64,000 nucleotides of DNA, from NCBI GenBank assembly GCA_000002445.1, contig CH464491.1:1888001-1952000 (forward strand), in the 5' to 3' direction. The translations under genes were made by a program, and so were the position numbers. The notes below the pieces were generated by a model. It was not told where the DNA came from. It searched no databases and saw nothing but the letters and a program-made list of their open reading frames with translations. The stretch's first letter is position 1, and every line of letters begins with the position of its first letter. Source of the stretch: Trypanosoma brucei. Its lineage: Eukaryota. This document shows, piece after piece, positions 2,818-64,000 of this stretch.

Positions 2818-3341
2818 TCTTTTATATATGTGTTGATTTGTTAATGCAGAGGCCTGAGGTAAACTAGTGTGTGTGTGCAGTGGGGGAAGTAGATGATGAA
2901 CAGTATATCGTGATGCGAATGAATATAACAATACTGATTGCGATTGTGCAAACTCTACCGTTCATCCGCATAATGAACTGTTACCCAGAGGTACGAGCAC
3001 AGAATTTACGTTTATTCGCGATATGCATACCGACATGCATTTTCTTGTTACCTTTTTTTAAAAAAAATAAGATAGGCGCGTGCGCGTGCATGACATCCGG
3101 ATGCAGGTTGCACAAGGACATATCCCTCGACGTCCCGCTTCGAGAGGACCCTTCTGCACTGGTGGTGCCTCGTATCCTTCATCACGCGTACCAGTTAATT
3201 AACGTGAGCTTCATTTGGTCACTATTTGATTATTCAGCCGGCCTCCAACTATACTGCGACTTTTATACTCCTCCGCCGTGAGAGCTATGAACCCCTATAT
3301 TCCCCCCTCATATTCGTCCAATCACTGATGCTTCATACAGT

Positions 3342-11600: not shown

Positions 11601-11632
11601 CAAGCAGAGGATATGCAAGGGGAGAATAACAC
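8630..11632 (-). CDS. Tubulin-tyrosine-ligase-like (TTLL) family protein, probable tubulin polyglutamylase, with long low-complexity N- and C-terminal extensions.
   Basis: Central TTL/ATP-grasp domain: [24 protein letters not shown] ... [17 protein letters not shown] ... [29 protein letters not shown] ... [29 protein letters not shown]. The start could instead be the internal Met at MRNMMEPV. Confidence 0.8.
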   Translation of the reverse strand: [1000 protein letters not shown]

Positions 11633-11888
11633 AAGGGAAACACCGAATGAAGCACTAAAGAAAAGCTCTTAATTTGTAACGAGACAAACCCTCTAGCGGA
11701 ACAAGTTTAGGCAGCAGAACACATGCGCCATAAGGTAGTCAAAGACACAAAAGACCCAAGGTGAAAGGTACACCCAGCCACATAGGAAAGTTGTAGACGA
11801 TTCAACATGTAGCTGCATTTGTGTGAGGCTAGTTTGATTAACCACTGCCCCACGCACACCCGTTGAATGTGCTCTGTACATTGGTTTC

Positions 11889-13310: not shown

Positions 13311-14114
13311 CTCGTACGTATGCGTAAACCTCCTCCCGCAGAATGCTCTAGTACCCTTCTACTTATCCCTCGCGATGTCCCTCTATTTTTTTTTTTTGCC
13401 ACGTTGCAACAGCGCTTGTTTCGTTATTTCTCTTCTCGTATATGAGTACAAATATATTTCTCGACTGATTTGTCCTCTCCTCTCCTTTTAATTCAAAACT
13501 TAACATACAGGGTGGAGGCAGTGCGTACCGTGCCTGCGATATTGTGCGCTAGAGTGCCCGAGGGGGTGAAGGAAATGAAATGGCAACACGAACCAGCAGT
13601 TAGACAAATGACGAATCTCGAAGCGTAAATAGACCCTCAGGTAACAGAGAGATGGAAGAGGGAGAGAGAAATGTGCACACAAAGCGATGCAGAGGCACGT
13701 GGTACGGAGAAAATAAAACAAGATGCACAGTTTGCATATGCCCCTCCACGTTGAAGGCAGTGATGACCGACCAACACCTTCTTCCGCCACTCCTACAAGA
13801 CCTGTTGCGAGACGCCGCTTCTGGGATGCTTTAGTGTTGGTTGCAACACAAGGCAAAGAAAAACATACACGGGGAAAAGAAGAAAGGGATGGTGAGCACT
13901 TTCCTCCTTACCTCCATTACTTCCGTCCCTGTACCCTATATGCACTCGCGAGCCCTTCCCCTTTTTCGCACATCTGCCTCTCTTTTTTTTTTTTAATGAA
14001 TATCTCCTGCACCGTCACCGCTTTTGAGGACGTTAGTAGTTTGAGTTACTTTCCCCTCCCCACACGGAAGCGACGCTGTCGTCCAGAGTTGCTCGCGGCT
14101 TCACATCGGATCGA

Positions 14115-20450: not shown

Positions 20451-20799
20451 TTTTTTTTTTTTTGAAGCAAGCCGGCCTCCAGATGATGGGACGATAGATA
20501 AACCTCAGATGTACTTGCACCTTCTCTCCTTCTTCTTGACTCCCGATACCTTCTTTATGTTATCGCAACACGCTACCGAGAGTATGTGGGTGCGTATAAC
20601 TGAGTGTATGCCTCACTCACTGTGTCTCTGCAAGAGTAAATTTGTACAGGGTATAATAAAAATATGATGATTGAAGACAGTTGGAGAAATAATAGAAGGA
20701 ATTAAATGATGACTTACCGACATGAAGGTGCGGCCGATGCGACCGACGCGGCTGTTACCACCAAATGCGAGGGCACAACAAATTCCTCGTGCATGGAGA

Positions 20800-21095
20800 G
20801 GGCAAGAAACGAAAGGGAAAAAGAACAGAGGGACATGAGTAAATAATAACAAAAATAATAAAAAAGGGGAAGAAACGAAAGAGCCAAAAAAAAAAAAAAA
20901 AAGAAACAACCACCGCAGTAAATAAAAATGAAAAAAGAAACGAGAAAAAGCACGTGGAAAGATTTGGTGGGTGTGCAGGTTTGCATGCGTGCACGTCCGT
21001 TTGTCTGAGAGGGAGAGGGGGAAAAAAAAAGAAAAAAAAGAAAAGAAGGAAAAACTGTAGAAAAACGAGAGAGACACGAAAAAGGGGCGAGCAAA
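20800..21095 (-). promoter_or_regulatory. Long polypyrimidine tract (mRNA sense) upstream of the 19728..20450 gene. Probable splice-acceptor / polyadenylation-guiding element.
   Basis: ~300 nt of plus-strand A/G homopolymeric runs (aaaaaggggaagaaacgaaagagccaaaaaaaaaaaaaaaaagaaacaacc ... gggagagggggaaaaaaaaagaaaaaaaagaaaagaagg). The F/L/S-rich minus ORFs in the track at 20613..21441 are its translation. Confidence 0.55.
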
Positions 21096-21184
21096 TGTAA
21101 CATACGGGTGGGATTACGGTACCCGCGATACTGCATTGGATCAATGGGTCGATGACGCGTGCATGTGCCTGTATATGCTTATGT

Positions 21185-21226
21185 ATATATTTATATATAT
21201 ATATATATATGTGTGTGTGCGTGTGG
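21185..21226. repeat. Compound microsatellite (TA)n(TG)n.
   Basis: tatatatatatatatatatgtgtgtgtgcgtgtg read directly. Confidence 0.9.
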
Positions 21227-22109
21227 GCGCGTGCCTTTGTGTTCGGAAGTAACATAAGGAGGGTGTGGTAAAAGAAAAAAAAATCGGCTATTCCAATCCA
21301 CATTCTTACATCGCCGTCTTGTAATAATAACCAACAGCTCCAGAAGAGAAAAGAAAGAAGAATTGAAATGCGCGCGAGTACGTGAAGAGAGGCCACACGT
21401 TCAACCACTTGCACAGGGAAGGTGTGAGTCCCATCATGCACTTATTTACCCTTTTCCTCAGTGGGGATATTGGAGAAGTATGCGGGAGCTGCAGTTGTTG
21501 TGACGAACTGCGAAATTCTGCCCAACCAAAATTCGCAAAGGCACGTGTGGACAAGAAACAGAAACAGAAAAAGCGTACCTCAATCCCCGATGTAGAAGAC
21601 ATCATTAGGCAAAACAAACAAACAAACAAGCAAACAAACACGTAGAGACACACATTCGTTGAGAAAGAGACGTGTCGCAATGAACAAGAGCGAACAAACA
21701 AACAAAAGAAGGACCCTCACAGTAGATAATCTCCTGACACGACACCTGCACACTTTCACCTGTACGCAAGTACAAAAAAGAAAGAAACAGCATTGAAAAA
21801 AGAAAAAAAAAGGGAAAGTCAGGATTAAAGCAACGAAACGGCACCGCGCGCCTAATCCACAAAATACCCTTCCATTTGTTCGCGTTGGCAATGTATGTAT
21901 TCCCCTTTTACCTTTTCTTTCTTTTCTTTTTTCTAAATATTTGCTGTTCCTCCGACTTTCAGAGACCCATTTTTTTTTTTGAAAGCAAATATGACTGTAA
22001 TCCCACCCTGATATACCTTCTTATTACACTTCACTTCTATTTCCCCTTCCCCCAGAAACACTTTTGGATCGTCCCAATCAATCCCTCTATGTCTCGTTCA
22101 TTCTCCTTT

Positions 22110-22116
<7 letters not shown>

Positions 22117-22140
<24 letters not shown>

Positions 22141-22141
22141 A
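22117..22141. repeat. (TA)12 microsatellite.
   Basis: tatatatatatatatatatatatata read directly. Confidence 0.9.
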
Positions 22142-22336
22142 TTTTTAATTCGCTCCTACACATTACTTCCGCATCACGTCCCAGACAAACCATTCCCTTT
22201 TCACATCTTTCCATATTCTTCCTTTCCTTGATTCATCACTCAATGCAAATTTGTCACCGTTTAGAGTCCTCAGTCACTAATCATATGTAAAACCAACTAA
22301 TCGAGAGAGTGCATGCAGGTGCCAGCACACATATGT

Positions 22337-22367
<31 letters not shown>

Positions 22368-22368
22368 C
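22337..22368. repeat. Compound (CA)n(TA)n microsatellite.
   Basis: acacacacacacacacacacatatatatata read directly. Confidence 0.9.
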
Positions 22369-23219
22369 TATATGGCCATAATATAGACAGCAGGAACAGT
22401 AATGTGGGAACAACCGCAGTAATTACTACAATATTTACCATTATAAGTTGATGGGTGTGTCCCAACTGCAACGAAAGTGAGGTGGGGGTCGGAAAATATA
22501 AGGAAGAAAAGAAAAGAAAAAAAAAGTGTCCTGTTTCTTTCCTCGTTACTTAGGCCATTCACTAACTTTTATTTCGGAGGAAGTTTGAGGCGAAAAATGC
22601 GCGTTTTGTCCCACTTTAGTCCTTCATTCCTTTTCCCTCCACCTCCCTTACGGAAGTGCGCAACGGCTCAATCAACAGTTCGCAAGTCCACTTTCACATG
22701 GTCATCACATAAACCCCGTGGGTTGATGTCGTGCACACCTCTCCCCCTTCACGCATGTCGACATACATTCACGAATATATGCATAAGTGCAAATGTAAGT
22801 AAATATACATTTAACTTCCTTTCTCATCTTTTCTTTACTTTCGTTCTGGCAACATTGCCTTCAGTCTTTTCGTAATACTCGTCCATTGGGTTCGCTTATT
22901 ACGCTTTGTTCCCCGTGCCTCGTCAGTTTTTTTTCCACATATATATATATATATGTATATATTTATATGGTCCTTCCTCTCCACCTTTATTTCCTTTCAA
23001 ACCTCTCTTTTTTTCATTTACTCCTCCCCTTCATGACCTCAAACCTTCAACCATTTGCTGCAGCTTTGCATTCCGGTGCGGATGAATTGTATACTTTTTT
23101 CTCTATTCCGCCCTTTCCTTTCCTTTCTTCTTACATTATTTACTCCTTTTTTTTTTCCTCTTGTCTCACCCATGCCTTTTCCCCTTTCTTTTAGCCGATC
23201 GGTCGATCTTTCTCTCTAA

Positions 23220-23220
<1 letters not shown>

Positions 23221-23250
<30 letters not shown>

Positions 23251-23256
23251 TAGATT
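23221..23256. repeat. (CA)n followed by (TAGA)n microsatellite.
   Basis: cacacacacacacacacacacatagatagatagat read directly. Confidence 0.9.
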
Positions 23257-23400
23257 CACTCACTCACATGTGTCATTTTCTTTCTGTTTTTGCTTTTGTT
23301 TTCCTCTTGGTGTATATAAACAAACATTTATATGTAGATGCAGATATATGTGTATATTTCTTTCTCTTTACGTACTTGCCTTAACCCACAAATTCAGACA

Positions 23401-23480
23401 CACGCATACACACACACACACACAAAGACACGTAAAGACACAAACACACACACACACACACACACAAAGACATACACGCA
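23401..23480. repeat. Interrupted (CA)n-rich tract in the 14-3-3 3' flank.
   Basis: cacgcatacacacacacacacacaaagacacgtaaagacacaaacacacacacacacacacacacaaagacatacacgca. Confidence 0.85.
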
Positions 23481-23572
23481 CGTCTTCTTTCCATCACGGT
23501 GCCGTTAGCCAACCGAGACCAGAAGGCAAGAAAGAAAGAAAGAAAGAAAAAATAGATGGAAATGAAGAAAAC

Positions 23573-24331: not shown

Positions 24332-24649
24332 TTTAACCGCTTGTTTTTTCTTTTGTTTTTTTTGTTGTTGTTGATATACGCGTTCTTTGTTCACTTATTT
24401 TCTTCTCTTTTTTTTTTAATATAGATTTTTTTTTGTTTATTCTACGTACTGTTATTTAAAGCAAAAATGGTAATAACAGCAACGCTGGTGTAAAGACCCA
24501 CCTTCACTTGATGCTATTCTCCTCTTTTTTTTTCTTTTTTTTTTCAAAAAAAAATGTTGACTTCACCTATTTTGACGTTCTCTTTCCTTCTCACGTTGCT
24601 CTATCCTTTTTATTATTGTTATTATTCTTTTTTTTCTCGATTGAATCTC

Positions 24650-25080
24650 TTTAACTACAGCACACGAAAAAAAAAAGAAGGAAACAACAACAACAACACG
24701 AGACGGTTGTGTACAATGATAATAATGAGAGCAACAGAAGGTGACAAAACAAACAAAAGAAAAACAGTAATAAACAAAATTTAAAGTAATAATAAAAATG
24801 ATAAAAAAAAAAAGGAAACATAAATAGAAACCGAAGATACCCATAATATGTAGGAATTTTAAAAAAAACAAAGGGAAAAAAGAAAAAAAAACTTCGAAAA
24901 ACAAAAAACAAAGTAAAGAAAGAAAGAATAATAACAAACAACAAAAACAACAAAAAACAAAAGAAATCGTAAATGGAAAAAAAAACAGCCATGAGAAAAA
25001 TGTGTGAAGGCAAGAAATATATGATGAGAGAGGCGAGAAAACAAAAAGGTGGAGAGGAAAACAAAAAAAAATAATTATAA
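24650..25080 (-). promoter_or_regulatory. Extended polypyrimidine region (mRNA sense) 0.3-0.75 kb upstream of the 14-3-3 start codon. Candidate SL-acceptor region implying a long 5'UTR.
   Basis: Plus strand purine-rich: cacgaaaaaaaaaagaaggaaacaacaacaacaacacg ... aaaaaaaacaaagggaaaaaagaaaaaaaaacttcgaaaaacaaaaaacaaagtaaagaaagaaagaataataacaaacaacaaaaacaac. Confidence 0.45.
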
Positions 25081-26856
25081 AAGGGTGTCGTATCATCGTT
25101 ACATTTCACGCAAAAAAATGTATGAATAGAGTAGAGGCCTTATTGCATTTACCATTATAATCATCACCATTATTATTATTATTATTATTCTTATCCCGTT
25201 CTTTTCTATTTGTGTGTGTGTTTTTTTTTTAATTTGATTTCGCAAGGGTTGCTCCATTCTCGGTACCAGCTTTTCTTTTTTTCTTTTTATTTCTTAAAAG
25301 AAATTTAAGTTTTGATATATATATATATATATATATTGTTTAAAAATTAATTGCCCCATTTTCCTTCTTCTTAATTTCTATATTCACTTTTGCCCCTGCT
25401 CCACTTCACCTCCGCACAACAAAACAACAACAGAAAGATACCGTTACAAATATGCAAACATTCCACACAGCCCGAAACCAACCGCGCTCAAACAAATAAA
25501 ATAATAACAATAATAATAATAAAGGAAACAACAAAAATACAACACGATATCATAATAATAAAGAACTCTATGGTATTTTCCCCCTTTCAACAGGTTTCTT
25601 TTAGCCAAAAATATTTTCATTTATAAAAAGGGGTAAAGAAATGACAAAACAAATCACAACAGGTTGGTAATGATGACTGCAGGTGTACGTTAAGTAAAAG
25701 GTTTTGTGGGCTTAAAATATGTTTGCATATGTTTTTCTTTTCTTTTTTTAACCACCTCTCTTTTCCTCCTCCTCCTCCTTTACGTTTGTGTTGTTGTGCG
25801 AAGTAAAGTGTGAAGTGAATTGGGAAGTGATGTGTTGTTATATAAATATATATATTTTTTATTTTTTTTATTTATTCGACTCCCTTCTTTTTTCTTTTTG
25901 TGTTTCCTCTCCGCCAATTGTAGAACCTCACTGATGTATTTTAACTTCTTTTTTTTTTTGCGTCTATGGTGCCACAGCGCTCATCGTATTGAAAAACGGT
26001 TCGCGCCGCGCGGGAGAAAAATTGAAAAAAAAACAATTGAAAGTGTTTGTGTTTATTTATTTATTATTTTTTTTTTGCGATTAAATTGTGTGTGTAAAAG
26101 TGAGTGAGTGAATGAATGAATGTGGATGTATATATATATGTGTATGTGTATGTGTCTATGGGGTCCTTTTACACATCCTCTGGCTGTTCCATTTACCAAT
26201 CTACAAAACAAAATAAAAATAAAGAGGAATCAACTGAATCACGCGCAAACACAAGACCAAAAATAAAAAATTAAAAAAAAGATAAAAATAAAAAAAAATA
26301 AAAAAGATAATTCGGCCGTTTCATGCAGCAGAATATGTAGAGGCTCTATATTTCGGATCCCTGAGGCGTATATATATATATATTTTTTCCTTCCCTCTTC
26401 TTCTTTTGTTCTCTCGTCCTTCTGAAATGTATAATGAACGAAGAAATATACGACCAACGGCTCCGAAGTGGAACATAAAACATAAAATAAAAGAAAACAT
26501 AAAAAAAACGAAGAGGGGAATACTTGTGTTTGCATATTCATATATAAATATATAAATATATATGTGCGTGTGTGATTCGTAAGAGGGGAAGGAAATATAT
26601 GTTGGACTTCCACCAAAGAAACAGTCCGTCATCTAAATTGTAAGGGGAAGGGAAGAAGAGGTGTAGTAAAACAAAAAACAAGAAAGGGTGGGGAAATGTA
26701 CAAAGGGAAGGGAGAAACTTATCCTTTAAAACAAAATAATAATAATAAAAAAACATTAGACAAAACACGATAAAAATACAAGGGTAAGGAAGAACTGTAA
26801 CAAACAATAAATTAAAAAAAAAACAACAACAAAGAAACAAAGTTTTTAATTCGATT

Positions 26857-51670: not shown

Positions 51671-53542
51671 TCACACTGAAGCGTGCGCGGAACCCGTTTC
51701 TGAAAGTTTCTGCATCAATTTTTTCGCCTCAGCTGATCCAACAACCTTTACGCTCTTTGCCTGATTCAGTGCGGCCTCAAGAGCGGGTTGAAGCTTTTCC
51801 GGATCAGCGTAGAGCATCGCTCGCTTTTGAAGTCCATCAATAATGATTTTACTCGCACTGGAACCAGAACCGACCACAACTATGTCCACAGAAGAGAGAT
51901 TAAAAGCGCTTGGCCTAACGGGATGGGATGCAAACACGTCTTTAGCCTTCGGAGACAAGAGATGTCCACCTGCCGCCGCCAGCGCTGTCACATCTTCCGT
52001 GTACGAATGTTTCCTCTTGTAGCCGAAACCAGATACATGGCGACGGCCGTAGTGACGGTGGGAGCGAGCATGAGGCATACCAACACGGCATGGAAGCGGT
52101 TTGTGAACACGATCGAGACTCTCTTCAACCAGGTCATGCGCACACGCCTCCACTTTACTCTTGGGAGCCGACACCACGTCCCACGCGCGAGAAATCCACC
52201 CGTCGCCTATCCGGTGGTGCCGTGCACCAAATATGTACTTCGAACTTCGGAGAATATCAGCCTCTCGTTCATTTTCACAAACAACTAATGTAAGGTGCTG
52301 CGCATCGGGACTAAGTATGCTCTCTGCTACCAGTGTGAGAAGACCTTTGTCATCAGCATAAAAGCCCCAACGCGCACAGAGGAAAGCGGTGGCATCAAGC
52401 AAAATGTCACAGCTTGGTTCTGCCGCAACAACGGCTTTCATAGGAATGCTATAGGGTTCCAGCGCTATAAACTTCGGGTGCTCAAGCCCCAAATCGCGTG
52501 GCCGCGGACCACCGAATTCCTCCACAATACGAGGACTCTCAAAATCCCAACTAGGAGCGTGATAAACAAGCACTCCCGGCCGCCGCCAACCCCATTCATC
52601 AATGGGAGACTGGGTGATGCGCTTCGACAGCATGATTTCCTGTTGTGCAACGTAGTTAAACTTGCGTATGGCTGCCAGTGAGGCGAAGTAAGCATGCGTT
52701 GGGTTATCGGTGATAATACGATACGGTGTGTTTGTTGATGGATGGCTTCCGAAGACGCCATCAATGAGGTAAAACCTCAAACCCTGTCCCAAGTGGTACT
52801 GTATCTCCCTTACGACGCGCTTGCCGTGAAGTCCATCGATTACCTTGAAACCGGGAAGTTCTGGATTCTTCAGCCGGCGATGCATCTGATGTTCCGGTGT
52901 ATGTGGAAACATGAAGTACTGTCGCGGCCTTTTCTGCTCTGCCTGATTGTTGCAGTTGTAGTAATAGTCCACAGACATGGCACCCGCTTTGTTGTGGCGT
53001 CTTCCCCATGCGCGACCTCGAACCTCATATGGCCGCAGATTATACTCTCCAACACCATACGTATAGCGCCAAACGCCCGACCACATACCTGCATTTGCAT
53101 AGTCGCCTACCTGTGACCAATTCGAAACCAGGGTGCTGCTGTTCGCGTTCCACCACGGACCAGGGTCCTCGTTTGTCTTGAGGAAAAGTGTTAGTGAATT
53201 ATAACCCCATTGGTACATGGTGCGGAGGTAATTCTTTGCTGGTGAACCAGGTGAAAGACGCGGGGCAACCTCGTGGCGGAAAATAGGTTTTCGCCGTTCT
53301 TCCTCTGCATCGGGGTTGCAGCAAATTTCATTTAGAATGGACATCTGCCCCGCGCTGTGGCCCGCTTGCGGCTTGAGAGCCTCCTGCATGTTGGCATACC
53401 GCACCCCGCGCCGCTGCGAATGATGAAGGAGTGCCACGCAGCTGTCACATGCGGTTAGTCGTACACCAGCACCGGAGAGGACTCTACGAAGCATACGTGC
53501 AGCCGATTCACTCAAACTAAATAAAACGTAAAGCGGCGACAA
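51671..53542 (-). CDS. Conserved hypothetical protein (623 aa). No confidently assignable domain.
   Basis: Long ORF on the unit strand with coding composition. W/Y-rich N-terminal half (YQWGYNSLTLFLKTNEDPGPWWNANSS; WSGVWRYTYGVGEYNLRPYEVRGRAWG). Function not recognisable by eye. Confidence 0.55.
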   Translation of the reverse strand: MSPLYVLFSLSESAARMLRRVLSGAGVRLTACDSCVALLHHSQRRGVRYANMQEALKPQAGHSAGQMSILNEICCNPDAEEERRKPIFRHEVAPRLSPGSPAKNYLRTMYQWGYNSLTLFLKTNEDPGPWWNANSSTLVSNWSQVGDYANAGMWSGVWRYTYGVGEYNLRPYEVRGRAWGRRHNKAGAMSVDYYYNCNNQAEQKRPRQYFMFPHTPEHQMHRRLKNPELPGFKVIDGLHGKRVVREIQYHLGQGLRFYLIDGVFGSHPSTNTPYRIITDNPTHAYFASLAAIRKFNYVAQQEIMLSKRITQSPIDEWGWRRPGVLVYHAPSWDFESPRIVEEFGGPRPRDLGLEHPKFIALEPYSIPMKAVVAAEPSCDILLDATAFLCARWGFYADDKGLLTLVAESILSPDAQHLTLVVCENEREADILRSSKYIFGARHHRIGDGWISRAWDVVSAPKSKVEACAHDLVEESLDRVHKPLPCRVGMPHARSHRHYGRRHVSGFGYKRKHSYTEDVTALAAAGGHLLSPKAKDVFASHPVRPSAFNLSSVDIVVVGSGSSASKIIIDGLQKRAMLYADPEKLQPALEAALNQAKSVKVVGSAEAKKLMQKLSETGSAHASV

Positions 53543-55430
53543 CGGGAGGGAAAGAAGAAGAGAACTAACACCCGTGCCAACGTATACCTAACTTGTTCAT
53601 ATATATATATATATATAGAAATATGTAAGAAGAAGGACGGTGCATTAATGTGCAAAGGGGATGAACATGCAACACGTTTTGTTGCTGCAGGTGTTTGTGT
53701 GTATATGTGTGAGGCCAAAGTAGTTATTGCTCCACCAGTGACAATTAAACAGCTGTAGATGCTCCTGCATGGGTCTGTAATGCGTGATGAAATGCGAGGC
53801 GCATCCCACTGTTTGGTCACGTTTTGCGCCTGTTCCTAGGAAGACATTAAAGAGCGCCCATTAACCGCAAGAGAAGGATTAAAATAAAAAAAATAAATAC
53901 GAAAAAAAAACAGACAAAACACTGATTTGTAAGGAAGTTAACTCGTCATCCACCCACAAAAACATTCGCGCCGTTTGACAGTTAGAGACCATAAAGTGCA
54001 CAACCAAAAGTATGCGTTTCTAGAGTTGAGCTGCGTACGCTGTCCTACACGGAGTTAACCAGGGGTTATTTCGGACTTAGGTTGGAAAAAAAATTTTACT
54101 CTCAAAAGCAAAACAAAATAAGACAAGAAGAAATAAAAACGGCATGACACTACGAACATCGACACCTTATTCCTCTGTGTAGAGAAGGGTAAAGGAGAAG
54201 GAAAATGGAAGCCACCCGCAACTCACAACATTGCATGTGGTTATACGGGGCGGAAAAGACAAACACAGAAGTATGGGATGATTTTTTTTCCCCCCCCCGT
54301 TAGTGGTGATGAAGCGAGATGAGAATAAACGCGTTCGGTTACTCTGTGCGTTCATCTTCACTTTCTTTCCTCAAGAGGCGCATCATCTTTTCAATGTAAG
54401 AAAATGTTATCGCGCACGCACTCAGCAGTATGAAAGAATTCCGGGGAGCAATTTGCATGCCCTCTCCCCGATATCCTCCCCTCAGGCACGCTTAGAAAAG
54501 TTATATGAGTAAATGTTAAAAAAAAAAAAACAAAGGCATCATAAAGTCGTGCACACCTCTATCTTCTTCCCTTTTATCTCCTTTTCTTTTCTTTTCAAGG
54601 TAAATATATTAATCCGGCTTCTTTCCCCTCTTTCTTGTTATTATTTGTCTAATGTAACACCAAAGACCTGAATCCTTCTTAACACGTCGCCACTGCATCA
54701 GAGAGACGTGATCACACACGCTACAGAACGCAGGGGAAAAACATAAATATGTGCCCACACTTGCATGTTACAAAACGTGAAAAAGATGGATGCTTATGAA
54801 AAAAATAAAATAAAATTATGAACGAAACCTCCGTAGCGAGTTGGCGCGCGGTTAGTAACCCCCATTTTTCTTTTCCGCGGCGCAGCAAATGGGTAATTGG
54901 CCGCGGAGCAAGCGACTCTAAAAGAAGAAAAAATACACCGCTCACGAAATAACTGGCGTGGAGGAAGTGTAGGAGCAAAAAAAATAAAATAAAATAAAAA
55001 TAACAATAGATAATGAACGGTTTGAATTTTGGCAGTGAGTATAAAAAAAAAACAGAAAAGGCAAACGGTACAGTGATGGCGGCTGTCGCGCCGCAGGTAG
55101 CTGCACCTCATCACTTTTCCCGCCAACACACACACACACACAGACACAGACAGACGGAGTCGATAATTACACATCTTTGCTGCAGCATCAACCATCCCAT
55201 CTTCTGGTTTTCCATATGGCACCTTTCCCCTTCCTCTTTTCCTGACACATCGCTGCTGCAATGTAATGCTTTAATTTTACACCAACGACAACGATGGAAT
55301 ATTGCCGCGTTACATATTTTCTGCGCCCCACTACTGTGGACTCCCTCCACACACAAGCACAGAAGCCACTTGCATTGATGTCACCAATACCACTATTCCA
55401 CCACTGTGGTGATATATTTTTATGCCAAGC

Positions 55431-57257
55431 TCATGCAATCGTGGGGTTCCACCGTCTCGCGTGGTAAGTAGATTCTTGCACTTGGAGACAACCCTCCCCC
55501 GCTGGCGACGCATTTGCTTCACTGTAACTTATCAGCGAGTCGTACGGTGTGTTATTTGCCATTGGTGCTCTTTCCACAATATGCTCACGCGTTACCGGGT
55601 GGCCCCATGACTTGCACTGCCACGCAGAAGGCGGGCCAGCCGCCGGCGCCGGTCGATGCAAATCAAAAGGTAGTGGTGAAGTCGGTGCACTGCAGCCTCC
55701 AGGACACTTTTGAGACTCAGACGAGTTCATTACTTCACTCCTCTGCTTTGCGACATCCTGCCGGATCATTTTTTTCACACGGAGGCGCAGCTCCGATACG
55801 GTGGGGCGGTGCTCTGGAAGAGGAGAAAGCATCCACTGCAAAATCAATCGCCACGACTCAGGCACAACGTCGGGAATCACCACTGGGGATTGAAGTGTGT
55901 TTTGTATGTCCCCAATTGTTTTGAATGGAACCGATCCAACAAGTAGAGTGTAGAAGGTGACACCGAGAGACCAAACATCCATGGCGAACAGAAGTTGCTT
56001 CCGGACATCTGACTTTCCGCTTCTTCCGTTATGAACACTGTTAGCATTATTGGTGCCGTCAGCGCCCACATCACCCACGCAGGGTGATGGATCAACGCTG
56101 CAAAATACTTCCGGGGGCATAAACAACGGAGTCCCCTCGAAGCGGTGCAAACACATTTCGTCATCTCCGAGAATTGCCGCAACACCAAAATCAGAGATAA
56201 ACGCGCACTTCTTACTGTTGACGAGTATATTTTCAGGTTTGATGTCACGATGCACGATGCCGTGCCGCTGCAGATACTCCATTCCGGCGAGAATCTGGCG
56301 CGCATAATTAGTTAAGTCCTCAGGTGGGATCGGATCACAGTTCCCTTCTCTGTCTAGGCGGGCGATCGGGCCGTTGTCGATGTATTGCATGACAATGTAT
56401 AGCTTTTCAGTATCAGGATCATCGATAACCTCAAACAATGAGACAATACTCTTGTGTCGTAATTGCTTCATTACTCTGATTTCCCGCTGTAGAGCCTCCA
56501 TCCGAGCTGTTGCTGAATTACAAGCAGTCTCAATAGCTCGTCTTTTCTCCCTCGGTCGCGGGATAACTTTAATTGCTACGGACTCGTTACGCGAGAGACT
56601 GTACGCCAGCCGCACCTTACCTGAAGTTCCCTTTCCAACACTCTTCAGCAGAGCATATTCATTCAATATCGTGGTACCCTCAATCCAGTGCGATACGGAC
56701 GCATGTTTTGTGACCATGTCACCTCGCGGTATTAATAATGGCAATTTCCATTCCTCTTTAGATGAGTCATCACTACGCATAGAAAGTGATCCCAGCGGCC
56801 GCATAGCGCTGTAGTCTTCCGGATGAAGCGATGCCGGTGTTGGGGTGTCGGCGCACTCCGCCTGTTCGCTCATTTCCAGCGCTCTGGTTTGTGGCAGCAA
56901 GGCACTCAAGTCACTGAAAACATCAACACCATATACTGACAATGGCCATATGCCAATTTTACCTCCACCCATATATGTTGACAGCACCTGCGATTCTTTT
57001 GAGCGTGACGGGCTCGTTAATTCCTCGCCGCTTCGGTTGTGCGGTTTTGTACGAGTGGCTCGCAAGCGTTCTCCTACTGCAAGTTTTTGTGGTTCTGCAG
57101 GGGTACCTCCAGTTGATTCGCTCCCTTTGCTGTTAACATATTGGCTCCGTTCATCTCGTTTTGCCGAGTATACAGGAAGTCGCGCAGGAGCCGTGCCCAC
57201 ATCCGTCCATGAAAAAAGTAATGAGGAATCCTTCCCATCACCCTTGAAGGTGTTCAT
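55431..57257 (-). CDS. Ser/Thr protein kinase, CaMKK/LKB1-like. The catalytic domain is C-terminal to a ~220-aa S/T/P-rich region.
   Basis: Gly-loop VGKGTSGKV, VAIK. Insert-containing hinge VIDDPDTEKLYIVMQYIDNGPI (CaMKK-type). HRDIKPENILV, DFGVA, DVWSLGVTFYTLLVGSVPF. The ORF in the track extends to 57332, but its first 25 codons (MFFACFVCFLLLLLLLFFSSSS) translate the polyY tract. The start was reassigned to MNTFKGDGKD at 57257. Confidence 0.85.
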   Translation of the reverse strand: MNTFKGDGKDSSLLFSWTDVGTAPARLPVYSAKRDERSQYVNSKGSESTGGTPAEPQKLAVGERLRATRTKPHNRSGEELTSPSRSKESQVLSTYMGGGKIGIWPLSVYGVDVFSDLSALLPQTRALEMSEQAECADTPTPASLHPEDYSAMRPLGSLSMRSDDSSKEEWKLPLLIPRGDMVTKHASVSHWIEGTTILNEYALLKSVGKGTSGKVRLAYSLSRNESVAIKVIPRPREKRRAIETACNSATARMEALQREIRVMKQLRHKSIVSLFEVIDDPDTEKLYIVMQYIDNGPIARLDREGNCDPIPPEDLTNYARQILAGMEYLQRHGIVHRDIKPENILVNSKKCAFISDFGVAAILGDDEMCLHRFEGTPLFMPPEVFCSVDPSPCVGDVGADGTNNANSVHNGRSGKSDVRKQLLFAMDVWSLGVTFYTLLVGSVPFKTIGDIQNTLQSPVVIPDVVPESWRLILQWMLSPLPEHRPTVSELRLRVKKMIRQDVAKQRSEVMNSSESQKCPGGCSAPTSPLPFDLHRPAPAAGPPSAWQCKSWGHPVTREHIVERAPMANNTPYDSLISYSEANASPAGEGCLQVQESTYHARRWNPTIA

Positions 57258-57270
57258 TGATTTGTTGGAG

Positions 57271-57352
57271 GATGAAGAAAAAAACAACAACAACAACAAC
57301 AACAAAAAACAAACAAAGCACGCAAAAAACAAAAAAAAAGAGGAGGGAAGTG
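57271..57352 (-). promoter_or_regulatory. Polypyrimidine tract (mRNA sense), a trans-splicing/polyadenylation signal immediately upstream of the 55431..57257 kinase.
   Basis: Plus strand is almost pure purine (gaagaaaaaaacaacaacaacaacaacaaaaaacaaacaaagcacgcaaaaaacaaaaaaaaagaggagggaag), i.e. U/C-rich on the coding strand. Confidence 0.6.
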
Positions 57353-59678
57353 GTGGTTATCAGATAGCTAAATTGGTCACACCGTGCGATGGAGCCAAAA
57401 GCTTTCTGTACTTGCTCTTACGAGTATTTTTTCTCTCCTATGATCTTTTCTTCTAATTTGCCGCAGGTTGATTTCGGCTGTTTAAAATTAAAAACTATAG
57501 TCGCACAGCAAACGTACGCCGACCGTTCGTAGGCGCTGATGAAGATATGGAAAGGGTGGAAAGAAAAAAAAAGAAGAGAGAAGTCAGATAAGGTATTTTT
57601 AGAGTGGTATTTCTTGACATTGCAGAAAAGTGGACATAACAAATCATTAAATAAATAAAGTAGAATAATCATAATCATAATAATAATACGAATAACAATA
57701 AGAGAGCCGATGCAAGAAAAGAAAGGAAAACAATTTTTTTCATAACAATATTCGACAGCATACAACTCTTTACCGTAGCACATACGCACACACGTAAAGA
57801 GGAAGGAGGCGGCATCTTCTCAACGGGCCTCCGCAGAAGTGAAGCATAGTGGCATCATTCTATGAACAGTATCGAAAGGAACTGCTTTTTTTTCTTTCTT
57901 TTTTCTTTAAAAAAGAAAAACCTCTTTCCTCATCTCTCCTCCAAACACGTTTTCGTTTTCGTCTTCAGCTTCCTTTTTTTTTTCCACATCCTCTTCACCT
58001 TTTCAATTACTCCAAAATTTATTTATTTTTTTAAATCCACTTTAACAAGGTGCGACCGCTTCTTTCCCTTTCTCATTTTAACAAAAAAAAATTAAATAAC
58101 TAAATAATAAAACCTCTCGTTCTCAAAACACGCACGGGGAACAGGCAAAATGAAGGGAGGAAAATACGGGCGGGTTACGAAGCCCATGAGCAATGGAGTA
58201 GATATAATAAGGAAATTCCAAGTGGACATGAGACAAACTCGTGTGTGTGTGTGTGTATCAGGTGAAACAAAGAAATCATACGTGTGTATTAAAAAAAAAA
58301 AACAACAACAACAAAAGAAAGTAAAATATTGGTATGAAACAAAAGGGAATGTGTATAGCTTTACATCAGTGTTCCTTTGAGTGCATGTGTGAATGTTCAA
58401 GTGGGTAACCGCTACTGTGTTAAGATGAATATATTTAAATTCTGCATCATCTTCCAACTTTTGTTCGGTTGTGATGCTCCGCTTCACCAGAAAACAGCGA
58501 CTGAAGTAATTCCGCACAATAAAATTTACTTTGACGTGTACGCTCCCCCCCCCCTCCCTCCCTTCTTTCCTTCCGTCCTTCTTTCCTTTATTATTATTAT
58601 TATTTTTTTTTTTTGGTTTTAACCTCGCTTATTCTCTTCCTTTTTTTCCCCCTTCTCCATTCTCCTCGTTACTCCGCACCCACCCCTTTTTTGTTTATTT
58701 ATTTCCCTTCTGTAACGTTGCAAAAAAGGCCCTTAAAATAAGGAAACAAAAACAGGACTTGAGACAGAGTGACAAAAAGAGAGAAATTGAACTAAAATCG
58801 GGTACAATAAGGGAATGAAGGGGGAAGAGGAAAACAAAACAAAACAAAACAAAGAAGAATGGGGACTATTTCTACATCATGACGATAATAAAAATAATGA
58901 TGATAATAATAAAACATCGCAGGATAACGACGCCCCTCAAAACCTTATAGTTCTAGCAACAGATACAAACACACAAAAACAGCTAATTAACATCTTATTG
59001 ATGTTAATTAGCTGTGTATTCCCCTCGTTTCGTTCCCTTTACTTCTTCAGAATTTCCTCTTTTTTTTTGTTTCCCCCTCCTTCCTAATCGTCCATTCGCT
59101 TGGTGTTTATTCATTATTTCCGTCGTATAGGCCTTTCGTGCTTACACATCAATAACCATTCTTAATCATTTTTTCTTTTCTTTTCTTTTTTCTCCTTCTT
59201 AAAAAAAAAAATTAACCACCTTTATTATTATTGTTATTATTATGATCTTACAATTATTGCAATAATGTCCTTCTCCCTTATATCTCTTTATCTTCTCATT
59301 CGCAATCCCGTAAGGCGTGTTACCACAACCTGTCACTACCACTTTTATTTTTATTATTATTATTATTATCATTTTTTTTCCTTGGAATTACAAGCAATTA
59401 TTCCCCTTCGTAATAATTAGATGAATTTGTGTTGTCTATTTATTCGCACACAATTAAAAAGGAAAAAAAAAGCAAAAAAACGGAAAGGCAGCACAAACCT
59501 AAACATATACATCTTACTTCTTCCTCTTCCTCTTTCTTTCTTTCTTTTTTTTTAAAAAAATGTTTCCTCCCGTCCCCCTTCTCATTCTTTTCTTTTTTTT
59601 TTTGTACGCATTGTTAATAATGGCATATTTCCCCACGTTTAAGTTCCTCCATCACAACTTTTGATACGAGAAACATTT

Positions 59679-59685
<7 letters not shown>

Positions 59686-59709
<24 letters not shown>

Positions 59710-59750
59710 TTTTTTTTATATACACATATATGTATATATATTTTAATTTA
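59686..59750. repeat. Compound (CA)n(TA)n T-run TA-rich microsatellite cluster.
   Basis: cacacacacacacatatatatatatatattttttttt atatacacatatatgtatatatat. Confidence 0.85.
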
Positions 59751-60205
59751 AATGTATATGCCACGCTACCATCAACGCGCACATCTTCATGAAATAAAAA
59801 ACTAAAAAAAAATCCACCAAAGCAAAAAAAAAAAAGAAAAGAAAAGAAAAGGAAGAGGCGGGAGGGGGGAGGGGAAAAAAATAAAAAAATACAAATGAGC
59901 ACTACTCCAAAAAGGCGGCGGCACTCATGTACGAAACCTTCCATTCTTCCATACAAACTCTCTTTTCCCCTTTTCCTTTACTTATTTCTTTGAAAACGTC
60001 TTTTATCTTTTCTTTCTTTTTTTTTTTTACATAAACTGCAGCAGTAGCAGTAGTGGTGGTGGTGGTGGTGTTTGTGGGGGAGAAGAAACATTAAAAAAAA
60101 AACAGAAACAGAAAAAAAAACAAAAGAGAAGATGATTGAGGGGAGCATCATCACGAAAAACGCAAGCATACGAAAAAAAAAATGTTAGCAGCTATATGAT
60201 TCAGT

Positions 60206-60231
60206 ATATATATATATATATATATATATAT
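60206..60231. repeat. (TA)13 microsatellite.
   Basis: tatatatatatatatatatatatata. Confidence 0.9.
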
Positions 60232-61372
60232 GTTTGTATAGCGTAAATCACAAGAACAAAAATACAAAAAAAAAAAGAGCAAAAAAAAAAGCCTTCAGCC
60301 CCAAGCACAGAAGGCGTTCGTTACATCAAACAGATTAAATAAGAGGAAAGGAAGGAGGAGAATGAGAGAGGGAGAAAAAAAAAAAGAAACTACAAGTGGA
60401 GATACAATAAATGACAAAATGAAAAGAAGAAGGAGGAAACCCACCGCACTGCAAAGGAAAAAGGAAAAAAAAGGAAAAAAAGGGAAAAGGGAAGGGAGGG
60501 AAAAAAAGAAACAAAAGAAATTCACTCAGGAGAGTTGGAGGAACGCACACGCACCCACCCCCCCAAAAAAAAAGAAAAAAAAAGGAAACAAGAAAGAGAA
60601 AGCCATACCACAACAGTACCCTTTCACTTGGTCTTTCAATCCCCTTTCTTGTTTTCTTTTTTTTTTTTTCACCCTCTCTTCGTTCCTCTAACGTTGGCGA
60701 TAACAAAAAAAAAGAACAGGTAAATGTGAGGGAGGAATGGAGGAGGAATAAGAAGGAAAAAAAAAGAAAACAAGAAAGCAACAACATCAATACTGTAAAC
60801 AGAACCAACCGTCATGCATTCGCACCTACAACAGCGCACCGAGGCATACCACAAGGGCTAATTTACAAATTACAATAACAAGGCAAAAAAAAAAAAGAAA
60901 GCGGGAAATTAATGGGGTTTCAACCACACTCCCGTCCGCTCAACTACGGCACTGAAAAGAAAAAGAAAGGACAACAAAATATCGCCTACACGATGCACAC
61001 ACAGTTCTTCTTTTTTTTTTTTCGCCCATTTTTTTTTTCCACGGCTCTGCATTCTAAACTCCATTTTCCTTTTCGACGATCTCTCGCGTTCGCCACCGTT
61101 GTAAGTTTCACATGCGTTTATACGGGGTACGTGATGGAAAAATAAAAGAAAAAAATGAGTGCTCGCATTCCATTCTTTAAAGGTAGTAGTAATAGTAGCA
61201 TTATGACCAGGGAGGTAAAAGGAAAAAAAAGAAAATGGGAGGGGAACAATAAAAGAAAAGAGCAGAGGAAGACTACGATTTATTGAAAGGCCCGAAAGCG
61301 GTCAAACCACACTTGCTGAAACCCAACGCTTTTCTTCCAACTATCTACCAACCCAACTTCCCATTAAATAAC

Positions 61373-63448
61373 TCACTCCTCGTCTCCTTTACAAGGCGTC
61401 TCTCCATCCCGTTTCTCTGGAGTACGAGGGAATAATGAGCCACATAATCCCGGCAAACAACCCGCTTCCTCTTTTTTACCTTTCGCACATCTTTGCTTTG
61501 ATAAGGAGTGCACTCCTAATTGTGGGGCGGAATTCCTCTTTATAGCACAGTTGCTCGTGAGAACCTCCTGATTTGGCAACGTACCACTGCCACCGTCAAA
61601 CTCCCTGTTGTGCACATCCCTTGGGGTGGTCGCCACCGACGGCGAGACATTTGTTTGATTTCCCCGTGGTTCGATGGGAGGTAATTCAACTTTTTCACAA
61701 AAAGGCATGTCATGACATTCCAAAGGGCTTCCACCGGGAGAAACAACACGCGTCGAACGCCGGCTCAGCCGTCTTACTGGTTTCATAACGGTACCTCCCC
61801 AATTCGAACCTGAGAGGGGTTCGACATCACCACTTTTTGTGGTTGCATTGAGTTTTAGCGAGGCGTCGAAGGGATTGTCAATCCACCTAGGACTCATGGG
61901 AAGCGAAATTGCAACCGAATTATCGCCGCTGCGTTCCCTTAACAACCACGAAACATCTTCAGCATCTTTTTCGGGTTCGGTTAATGTCAAGGCTTCCTCT
62001 ATATCCTTCTCCGTAACGCAAACCAAGGTGTCGTCACACGCGTCACCAGAACTCTTATTTTTGTGGATCATTGCCTTAAATGCTTCGACAGCATGGCATG
62101 CGGTTATGCGGTTCTTGGGGTCGCGATCAAGCATCCTACGAAGCAAATTTTCCCAGTCTTCCCCATACTCAGTTGGTATCACAGGAAGGTTGGAGTCCAT
62201 AATATCGTCTATATTAGAGAAGGGAAGTCTTCCGGTAAGAAGAATGTACAATGTGACACCCATTGCCCATACATCAACTGGTTTTGCATACGACCTATCG
62301 CCTTTCCAGATCTCAGGGGCAATAAACAATATTGTCCCCTTTGTGCCCTGTATAGGCATCCCTGGTCCACATGAGGCGTTGGCTCTACTGGCTGCTAAGC
62401 TTTCTTGCATTATTTGTTCTACCCTCTCCCGTGCGCTTACGTCAAAAACCTCAGCCACGCCAAAGTCCGCCAAATACGCTCTTCCTTCTTTACTAACGAG
62501 TATATTTTCCGGTTTGATATCTCGATGCGCTATTTTGTTTTTGTGCAGATAGTCTAATCCAGAAAAAATCTGCCGAGCGTACTTCGCGAGTTGTCCAGGA
62601 GGAATAGGTGTGCAGACCTCCTCCTCGGGATCGCCAGTGGGACTACACCTAATGCGGCCGATAGGTCCACCGTCGATGTATTTCATTACAAGGTAAATTT
62701 TTCTAGCACTGGGATCGTCAATAACCTCGTACAGTGGAACGATATGTTTGTGCTTCAGCTTCTTCATGAGCGCAATTTCCCGCTGCAAGGCACTAAATCT
62801 CTCCTGCGCTGCCGTTTGCAGGCCGAACCGCGTCTTTGCCACGGGTCGACACACTTGCTTAATAGCCACAAGCGTATCGGTCTGGGTGTTGTACCCCAAC
62901 TTCACCTTACCGAACGATCCCCTTCCGATTTCTTTGAGCACCTGGTAATTGTTTATAAACTTCCCGCCGTCATCTCTCTTATCCACTCGAAGTTCACCCG
63001 TAATGCGTGCCGACCGCTGCCGTGCAAGGCTACAACTGCTATTGAGTGAAGAAGTGCAGGACGCATTTGTTGCATTTGGAAGTACCTGTATGGGACAAAC
63101 TCCACATAGCGCCCCACCACGGCATGACCTGGATCCGGCTGTCTTTCGACTAGCGAAACTAACCAATGATATTATTTCGGGATCCGTGGCACCTTCACAC
63201 TCCCCATCAGGGAGACGGGAGGGGCATCGTAAATCCTGCCCTTTATTTTTCGCTTGCCAAATTTCAGAGAGACAAGATTCATTTCTAGTGATCTCCTTAT
63301 TGTACGAGTCACTACACCCATTGTCGGCCCCTTTAACCATATGAGACGAAAAACCGCGGCCTCTGTCCAGGCTGGCATTACTTCTTTGTTTCGGTGTCGC
63401 CATCGACAAAAAGTGGGGGAGCTGCTCCGTGCATTCCTCCTGAGTCAT
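61373..63448 (-). CDS. Ser/Thr protein kinase, CaMKK/LKB1-like. Paralog of the 55431..57257 kinase.
   Basis: IGRGSFGKV, VAIK. VIDDPSARKIYLVMKYIDGGPI. HRDIKPENILV, DFGVAE, PEIW..VDVWAMGVTLYILLTGRLPFS. The ORF in the track extends to 63604 through a (TA)n repeat (LYIYIYIDNF). The start was reassigned to MTQEECTEQLPHF at 63448. Confidence 0.85.
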   Translation of the reverse strand: MTQEECTEQLPHFLSMATPKQRSNASLDRGRGFSSHMVKGADNGCSDSYNKEITRNESCLSEIWQAKNKGQDLRCPSRLPDGECEGATDPEIISLVSFASRKTAGSRSCRGGALCGVCPIQVLPNATNASCTSSLNSSCSLARQRSARITGELRVDKRDDGGKFINNYQVLKEIGRGSFGKVKLGYNTQTDTLVAIKQVCRPVAKTRFGLQTAAQERFSALQREIALMKKLKHKHIVPLYEVIDDPSARKIYLVMKYIDGGPIGRIRCSPTGDPEEEVCTPIPPGQLAKYARQIFSGLDYLHKNKIAHRDIKPENILVSKEGRAYLADFGVAEVFDVSARERVEQIMQESLAASRANASCGPGMPIQGTKGTILFIAPEIWKGDRSYAKPVDVWAMGVTLYILLTGRLPFSNIDDIMDSNLPVIPTEYGEDWENLLRRMLDRDPKNRITACHAVEAFKAMIHKNKSSGDACDDTLVCVTEKDIEEALTLTEPEKDAEDVSWLLRERSGDNSVAISLPMSPRWIDNPFDASLKLNATTKSGDVEPLSGSNWGGTVMKPVRRLSRRSTRVVSPGGSPLECHDMPFCEKVELPPIEPRGNQTNVSPSVATTPRDVHNREFDGGSGTLPNQEVLTSNCAIKRNSAPQLGVHSLSKQRCAKGKKEEAGCLPGLCGSLFPRTPEKRDGETPCKGDEE

Positions 63449-64000
63449 TATACCCAGACAGTGCGTATTCCTTTTTTTTTTTGATTGCTGCGTCCTTCTT
63501 TGCGTCCTAAAGTTATCAATATATATATATATATATAGCACGTTTCCTCTCTTCTTTGAGTTGTAAACGCGCGTAATGGTCTTGGCGCCGCCGCTGTACT
63601 GCAAAATGCGGGCGTGTAAGTGTCCTTAGAGATACAAATAATCAAATAAATAATTATATAATTATATATATATGTACCCCCGCGAGGAGTCGGGATATAA
63701 CTTTCTTCCCTCCCTTATTTTTTTTTTCGTACCCACACACACCCTTTTCGTTTTTTCTTCGATTCCCTTACCAGATAAAAGAATGTATATAAGTTTTTTG
63801 TGTAATTACAATTAAGTATTTAGAACTGAAGGTATTCCCTTTTCTTTCCCTTAACTATGTGATGATACGTTTTCCCCCTTTTTACGCTGACGCACTTCCC
63901 TTTACTCACCTATATGTTGTTTTGTTTGTTTGTTTGTTTGTTCGTCTATTATTATTATTTCTTTTTTTTTTTTTCGTATTCTCGATGTCGGTTCTAGTCG

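Follow-up and report, generated by a model that had tools for sequence, protein, structure and literature searches.

A 4.1-kb spacer in a Trypanosoma brucei tandem of CAMKK-family kinase genes is most likely an ordinary long untranslated region

Trypanosome mRNAs are cut from polycistronic precursors; a spliced leader (SL) is added at an AG that follows a polypyrimidine tract, and this addition is coupled to polyadenylation of the preceding RNA. Metazoan CaMKK1 and CaMKK2 are Ca2+/calmodulin-dependent kinase kinases that act upstream of CaMKI/IV and AMPK. Here we analyze a 64-kb window of T. brucei TREU927 chromosome 11 (the whole stretch of DNA studied, to which all coordinates refer unless another locus is named), in which a spacer of 4115 bp (57258-61372, GC 0.355) separates two genes for CAMKK-family protein kinases, denoted K1 and K2. 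The median 3′ untranslated region (3′UTR) in T. brucei is 400 nt. About 6% of T. brucei mRNAs have 3′UTRs longer than 2 kb, some exceeding 5 kb, and the longest are found on kinase and RNA-binding-protein mRNAs (PMC8982893). Long 3′UTRs contain polypyrimidine tracts that are masked by DRBD18 and often unused; when the masked signals are used, they give rise to shortened mRNAs and to trans-spliced, polyadenylated RNAs from the 3′UTR. Like the K2-K1 spacer, the 3′UTRs of RBP10 (7.3 kb) and ZC3H22 (>5 kb) are multi-kilobase, low in complexity, rich in polypyrimidine and located downstream of the coding sequence (CDS) of a regulatory protein, but the extent and the regulatory fragments of the RBP10 UTR have been mapped experimentally, whereas the extent of the K2 3′UTR is predicted and the RBP10 motif is not enriched in the spacer. 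The spacer also resembles the origin of the long non-coding RNA (lncRNA) grumpy, a low-GC intergenic interval upstream of RBP7, beside regulatory genes and with trans-splicing and polyadenylation motifs (PMC9200285). Unlike T. brucei lncRNAs such as grumpy, the K2-K1 spacer contains candidate signals only, with no embedded small nucleolar RNA (snoRNA) or other Rfam family.

Both kinase genes are encoded on the minus strand, K1 at 55431-57257 (608 aa from its ATG) and K2 at 61373-63448 (691 aa from its ATG). As all substantial open reading frames (ORFs) of the window are on this strand, K1 and K2 are within a single polycistronic unit that is transcribed towards lower coordinates, K2 being the upstream and K1 the downstream gene of the pair. 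Both proteins match the Pfam Pkinase domain (PF00069; gathering cutoff 31.7 bits) with 166 bits for K1 (E = 1e-48) and 180 bits for K2 (E = 9e-53), and the HRDIKPEN, DFG and PPE/APE motifs of eukaryotic protein kinases are present in both. The two are 39% identical across 332 residues of the kinase domain (E = 4e-64). The original prediction, made from the DNA letters before any database search, had described two paralogous same-strand kinases around a 4.1-kb spacer with a common HRDIKPENILV / DFGVA core and Ser/Thr-rich N-terminal regions, and each of these features was recovered: the motifs are EVIDDPDTEKLYIVMQYIDNGPI, HRDIKPENILV and DFGVA in K1 and EVIDDPSARKIYLVMKYIDGGPI, HRDIKPENILV and DFGVA in K2, and Ser+Thr content is 19-21% in the N-terminal regions compared to 9-11% in the kinase domains.

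We consider it probable that the spacer is transcribed and untranslated, consisting mostly of the K2 3′UTR and the K1 5′UTR, in an ancient CAMKK tandem of one polycistronic unit. The spacer has the properties of a long trypanosome inter-CDS region: it is flanked by same-strand CDSs, is non-coding and low in GC, and contains polypyrimidine tracts with downstream AGs. On the coding strand we identified 24 such tracts, each with an AG within 1-100 nt downstream. Based on the polypyrimidine-AG rule, the predicted K1 trans-splicing region spans minus-strand positions 57369-57583: a polypyrimidine tract of 35 nt (57583-57549) precedes a series of AGs from 57537 through 57369, at one of which SL addition for K1 would occur. 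The K1 5′UTR would then comprise the last ~110-280 nt of the spacer, including a T-rich and (GTT)7 tract directly upstream of the K1 ATG (57267-57350, minus strand), within which Tandem Repeats Finder (TRF) identifies an (AAC)7.7 repeat (plus strand, 57283-57305). Given that polyadenylation is coupled to the K1 splice, the K2 poly(A) site is expected 100-200 nt further upstream, near 57650-57750, and if the K1 site is the sole major processing site, the K2 mRNA would be ~6 kb long with a 3′UTR of ~3.6 kb. The remaining polypyrimidine/AG signals inside the spacer may represent potential alternative processing sites, of the kind normally masked by RNA-binding proteins such as DRBD18.

The position of the K1 splice site is constrained by the AGs near the start codon. 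The last AG upstream is at 57369, and the next two (57244 and 57232) are both inside the CDS, which begins with the ATG at 57257. As the interval from 57369 to the ATG, filled by the T-rich/(GTT)7 tract, contains no further AG, the K1 splice site should be at 57369 or further upstream. Two arrangements could be drawn from these positions, a 5′UTR of at least 112 nt that contains the T-rich/(GTT)7 tract or some splicing inside the CDS. The K1 N-terminus is conserved in T. congolense (TDVGTAPARLPVY compared to TDVETAPAQLPVY), which favors the annotated start.

The predicted ~3.6-kb K2 3′UTR is long relative to the median, yet it is inside the documented range. Of the proposal of an exceptionally long UTR pair, the long UTR is the most plausible reading of the spacer, and its exceptional character is not supported, as ~6% of 3′UTRs exceed 2 kb and those of kinases are among the longest. 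A mainly K2-derived spacer also fits the syntenic locus of T. theileri, where K1 is absent and K2 is nonetheless followed by a gene-free gap of 3059 bp (12218-15276 of locus L010, GC 0.33), beyond which is the orthologue of K1's downstream neighbor. Likewise, in T. cruzi and T. vivax as in T. brucei, no other local gap exceeds the one between K2 and the next gene, which measures 1962 bp in T. cruzi and 3040 bp in T. vivax.

Several points weigh against a single long K2 3′UTR. The splice and poly(A) sites, and with them the UTR lengths, are inferred from sequence. The largest polypyrimidine block of the spacer, a candidate internal trans-splicing signal at 60341-60602 on the minus strand (tracts of 38, 68, 24 and 49 nt; AGs at 60450, 60391 and 60294), is longer and purer than the proposed K1 tract. 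Judged on sequence, the block would make a good splice signal, which would argue for a short K2 3′UTR and a separate downstream RNA. In addition, known 3′UTR regulatory motifs (UAUUUUUU, AUUUA, UGUA and others) are not enriched in the spacer over dinucleotide shuffles, relative to which only microsatellites stand out, and the RBP10-binding motif UAUUUUUU is observed twice compared to 1.8 expected, so that a regulatory role for the length of the spacer is unproven.

It is possible, though we consider it rather unlikely, that two or more RNAs are processed from the spacer, with a K2 3′UTR of ~0.5-0.75 kb ending upstream of the 60602-60341 block and one or more SL-capped, polyadenylated non-coding RNAs (ncRNAs) of up to ~2.6 kb. 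This arrangement, which can coexist with a long-UTR isoform, would make use of the 24 tracts with AGs and in particular of the near-pure 68-nt and 49-nt tracts. It has precedent in the 1428 mostly intergenic, low-GC lncRNAs of T. brucei that carry an SL and poly(A) (PMC9200285), and in the trans-spliced, polyadenylated 3′UTR-derived RNAs that are freed upon DRBD18 depletion. Against it, the spacer sequence is not conserved in T. cruzi or T. vivax, its center diverges fastest between subspecies, the Rfam scan identified no snoRNA and no other family, polypyrimidine tracts are common inside long 3′UTRs and often unused, and the supplements queried, from two lncRNA papers, have no searchable entry for K1 or K2. 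More broadly, we found no per-gene UTR, lncRNA or splice-site entries for the two genes in the published supplements that were searched. Considering internal processing of the DRBD18 type together with the ~1400 catalogued lncRNAs, the long-UTR and non-coding-transcript readings are not mutually exclusive, and a processed ncRNA from the spacer, if real, would belong to a known class.

A functional extension of this idea is distinctly improbable: a stable, independently processed ncRNA, or regulated alternative polyadenylation of K2, could control one or both kinases, for example in life-cycle differentiation, in the manner of grumpy and RBP7. If so, this function would be reflected in the retention of a tail of several kilobases behind K2 in every Trypanosoma species examined. 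The description of the spacer as a regulatory hotspot for a stress-signaling kinase was not supported in either part; the known motifs are not enriched, cross-species conservation was not found and the fastest divergence between subspecies is at the spacer center, and no support was obtained for the stress-signaling label. The reading that we favor for the spacer is still the long K2 3′UTR joined to a short K1 5′UTR, and nothing in the searches described below revealed a hidden gene or a conserved RNA.

To look for coding potential, we examined the spacer for ORFs and find 10 ATG-initiated ORFs of at least 60 aa. The longest (60335-60787, minus strand, 150 aa) is 62% F/L/S/P, is underlain by the 60341-60602 polypyrimidine block and has a third-position GC content (GC3) of 0.36 compared to 0.48-0.49 in K1 and K2. 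Pure pyrimidine or purine tracts cannot encode stop codons, which accounts for the low-complexity ORFs of the spacer. A Pfam search of the seven longest spacer ORFs returned no match above cutoff, and tblastn of 68 stop-to-stop ORFs (each at least 40 aa) gave no match when run against the syntenic loci of T. cruzi, T. vivax, Leishmania mexicana, Bodo saltans and Novymonas esmeraldas. The expectation that the interval would contain no credible ORF is borne out.

The T. b. gambiense annotation nevertheless includes a 132-aa ORF inside the spacer, the counterpart of the ORF at 60335-60787, and the T. congolense gene numbering skips one identifier between the two kinases. That this ORF, or any other in the spacer, is a real protein-coding gene is very improbable given its composition and GC3, its position on a stop-free polypyrimidine tract, and the lack of a Pfam match or of a tblastn match for any of the 68 ORFs in five syntenic loci. 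Moreover, nothing is called between the kinases in T. cruzi or in T. vivax (locus L005), and in a second T. vivax assembly (locus L006) the one ORF called there, of 111 aa, directly adjoins the K2 stop codon. Low-complexity ORFs annotated in such spacers are artifacts of stop-free purine and pyrimidine tracts.

Searches for RNAs and repeats were equally negative. Comparison of the spacer with the T. cruzi and T. vivax spacers by blastn, with and without dust masking, yielded homopolymer-type matches only, and a tRNA scan of the spacer found none. An Rfam scan of 53000-64000 returned only matches resembling microRNA (miRNA) precursors, scoring 19-32 bits compared to gathering scores of 64-184, and no snoRNA. 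These weak miRNA-like matches derive from a fold-back-capable polypyrimidine, polypurine, polypyrimidine arrangement at 60565-60778 on the minus strand (pyrimidine, 60778-60705; purine, 60689-60640; pyrimidine, 60602-60565). The tandem-repeat search of the spacer found microsatellites only, blastn revealed no dispersed repeat common to the spacer and the remainder of the window, and no decayed kinase copy was detected in the spacer at E < 0.01.

The texture of the spacer is generic for this genome and recurs in the window's other long intergenic regions. No CDS-to-CDS gap of the window is longer than the spacer (the two next in size measure 3122 and 2525 bp, and the majority 50-1900 bp), and 20% of the spacer's coding strand is in polypyrimidine and 16% in polypurine tracts, compared to 13-17% and 13-14% in the other two long intergenic regions. 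The original prediction described alternating purine-rich and pyrimidine-rich blocks, of which the purine-rich ones stand (plus-strand purine content of 70% at 60330-60800 and 82% at 57271-57352) and the uniform pyrimidine block at 57840-59400 does not, as this interval consists of sub-blocks alternating at 35, 64, 29, 65 and 30% purine.

Comparison of T. b. brucei with T. b. gambiense revealed 3.0% substitutions and 4.1% gap columns in the spacer, compared to 1.1-1.5% substitutions in neighboring intergenic regions and 0.2-0.6% in CDSs. The least constrained part is central (59019-60122, minus strand), with A/G-rich blocks and (TA)n and (ATA)n microsatellites and with 5-10% substitutions per 250-nt window, as measured over 60122-59123, compared to 0-3% near the flanking genes. 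The fastest-diverging stretch between the subspecies is at 59623-60122, with 7-10% substitutions and many indels, centered on (TA)n and poly-T/poly-A microsatellites, a divergence that may partly reflect alignment ambiguity in low-complexity sequence.

To date the kinase duplication, as had been suggested, we constructed a neighbor-joining tree from 254 kinase-core columns with 100 bootstraps, in which the other two T. brucei CAMKKs were not included. Each of the two kinases has a separate set of orthologues that spans Trypanosoma and Leishmaniinae. The Trypanosoma K1 clade (bootstrap 100%) is joined with Leishmaniinae K1-type kinases at 76%, including the syntenic Leishmania chromosome 11 kinase, and the Trypanosoma K2 clade (bootstrap 100%) is joined with the K2-type kinases of Novymonas and Lotmaria at 95%. 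A sister relationship of K1 and K2 among the kinetoplastid CAMKK paralogues has a bootstrap of only 9% in this tree. The phylogeny thus places the K1/K2 split before the divergence of Trypanosoma and Leishmaniinae.

A recent local duplication, with the spacer as the scar of the event (for instance a degenerated third copy or a mobile-element insertion), is barely conceivable. K1 and K2 are adjacent, on the same strand and of the same family, as such an event would leave them, but it is already refuted by the phylogeny, in which orthologues of both are distributed across Trypanosoma and Leishmaniinae. It also conflicts with the 39% protein identity of the two kinases and with their nucleotide similarity, which is confined to two short stretches. 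The inserts of the two proteins are differently placed, with 52 residues from DFG to APE in K2 and 28 in K1, and the spacer contains neither a kinase remnant nor a dispersed repeat shared with other parts of the window. The suggestion of a local duplication is therefore right as to paralogy and holds only for an ancient event.

The gene order Rad51 paralogue, proteasome alpha, K2, spacer, K1, ~600-aa protein and FAD-binding protein is kept in T. b. gambiense, T. cruzi and T. vivax. At the syntenic site in L. mexicana we found a K1-type kinase only, in agreement with published data that assign the L. major orthologues to two chromosomes, 11 and 35. In Bodo saltans (locus L008), two tandem CAMKK-like kinases at 10001-12610 and 13065-15329, separated by a gap of 455 bp, directly follow a proteasome-alpha-like sequence, and this shared syntenic position suggests that the tandem may predate the trypanosomatids. 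The proteasome-alpha-like sequence of B. saltans is unannotated and split across two frames (8761-9412 of locus L008). Both B. saltans copies appear more similar to K2 than to K1.

Individual lineages depart from the two-gene arrangement. In N. esmeraldas (locus L009), two K2-type ORFs (1838-4834 and 10001-13597) are on the same strand ~5 kb apart, and a K1-type kinase begins 9.3 kb further downstream; this locus is sparsely annotated. At the T. theileri locus, no credible K1 remnant was detected by tblastn, and neither T. theileri nor T. melophagium was represented by a K1-type protein in our homologue search.

The closest solved-structure relatives of both kinases are CaMKK2 and CaMKK1, with a best E-value of 6e-36 for K1 and 4e-38 for K2, followed by AMPK, Snf1 and MARK structures with weaker values (1e-27 to 1e-31). 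Assignment to LKB1/STK11 was considered and rejected: STK11 matches K1 with E = 9e-24, far below CaMKK, AMPK and MARK, and is not among the 60 best solved-structure matches of K2. Of the predicted CaMKK/LKB1-like character, then, the CaMKK half is retained.

Both kinases contain the signature EV[LI]DDP...LY[LM]V...G between β4 and the hinge. In the form EV[IL]DDP...LY.V...G it is kept in all kinetoplastid K1 and K2 orthologues examined, Bodo included, except an Angomonas homologue. The EV[IL]DDP signature is also found in seven of nine CaMKK-family proteins examined from other eukaryotes, including coral, Andalucia, Naegleria and Galdieria, and is not present in the CIPK and BRSK-like outgroups compared. 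The segment had been noted as an unusual hinge insert; it is present, but it is a CaMKK-family signature and is neither an insert nor unusual. In the neighbor-joining tree the kinetoplastid group adjoins the CaMKKs of other eukaryotes, apart from the CIPK and BRSK outgroups. On these sequence comparisons K1 and K2 belong to the CAMKK kinase-domain class.

Metazoan CaMKK1 and CaMKK2 are the best solved relatives of K1 and K2 (E = 1e-33 to 4e-38) and have the signature in common with them; they differ in that K1 and K2 have no recognizable calmodulin helix, that K2 has an activation-loop insert and that K1 has an insert after the APE motif. K1 has the canonical 28-residue DFG-to-APE spacing of metazoan CaMKK1 and CaMKK2, and its insert of ~40 residues follows the PPE/APE motif. 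In K2 the DFG-to-APE distance is 52 residues (51-54 across the K2 clade), with a conserved 24-residue activation-loop insert in the clade (RERxExxMQES...; within K2 residues 336-387).

The regions C-terminal to the kinase domains differ as well. K2 keeps the CaMKK post-kinase motif V.VTE.D[IV]..A[IL] (within residues 476-505), which K1 does not have. By motif inspection, coral and Andalucia CaMKKs have a basic hydrophobic helix after the VTEEDI motif (ILVKSMLRYHTFG; IMKAVNQFRKRAQ), whereas in K2 an acidic KD..DV.WLL stretch (TLTEPEKDAEDVSWLLRE) follows VTE.D[IV]..A[IL] in place of a basic calmodulin-binding helix. The same inspection revealed no recognizable calmodulin-binding basic amphipathic segment C-terminal to the kinase domain of K1 or K2. 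Regulation of the two kinases by Ca2+/calmodulin thus appears unsupported by their sequences, and 'CaMKK' denotes their kinase-domain class, not a mode of regulation. We found no biochemical data or substrate for K1 or K2 in the literature searched. K1 and K2 are candidates for whichever CAMKK-family member activates trypanosome AMPK, a role on which the present analysis has no bearing.

The literature already contains the genes themselves, their CAMKK family assignment and the distinct L. major and T. cruzi orthologues of each. The protein sequences are exact matches to T. b. brucei TREU927 XP_828771.1/Q384X2 (K1) and XP_828773.1/Q384X0 (K2), and both are 99% identical to proteins of T. b. 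gambiense chromosome 11. Four Other/CAMKK kinases are listed per TriTryp species by Parsons et al. 2005, including the orthologue rows LmjF11.0250 = Tb11.02.4830 = Tc..511165.100 and LmjF35.2320 = Tb11.02.4860 = Tc..511165.80, and the kinome of Jones et al. 2014 has the chromosome 11 Other/CAMKK pair Tb927.11.6990 and Tb927.11.7010. The bloodstream-form phosphoproteome includes pS61, pS602, pS604 and pT608 on Tb11.02.4860. The residues at positions 61, 602, 604 and 608 are S/S/S/T in K2 but not in K1, which identifies K2 as Tb11.02.4860 and indicates that it is expressed as protein. K1 is Tb11.02.4830, and the old identifiers probably correspond to Tb927.11.6990 (K1) and Tb927.11.7010 (K2), a mapping based on gene order. 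As the kinases are in published kinomes and long low-complexity 3′UTRs on kinase mRNAs have been described, the analysis has little import beyond annotation hygiene; its modest additions include the K1/K2 split that predates the Trypanosoma/Leishmaniinae divergence, the Bodo tandem in the same syntenic position, the reading of 'CaMKK' as a kinase-domain class and the artifactual nature of low-complexity ORFs in such spacers.

Low-complexity ORFs were also observed elsewhere in the window. A further ORF, of 169 aa, is annotated immediately after K1 in T. b. gambiense (12046-12555 of locus L001; window 54716-55261, minus strand); its counterpart in the window is a low-complexity ORF of 155 aa at 54794-55261 and is probably no gene. 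The intergenic regions at 20451-23572 and 24332-26856 (3.1 and 2.5 kb; GC 0.30 in the second) have the same purine/pyrimidine block texture as the spacer, and each contains one low-complexity minus-strand ORF of ~180 aa (20755-21303 and 24563-25096). The first of these regions is downstream of a 252-aa CDS, whose N-terminus looks 14-3-3-like.

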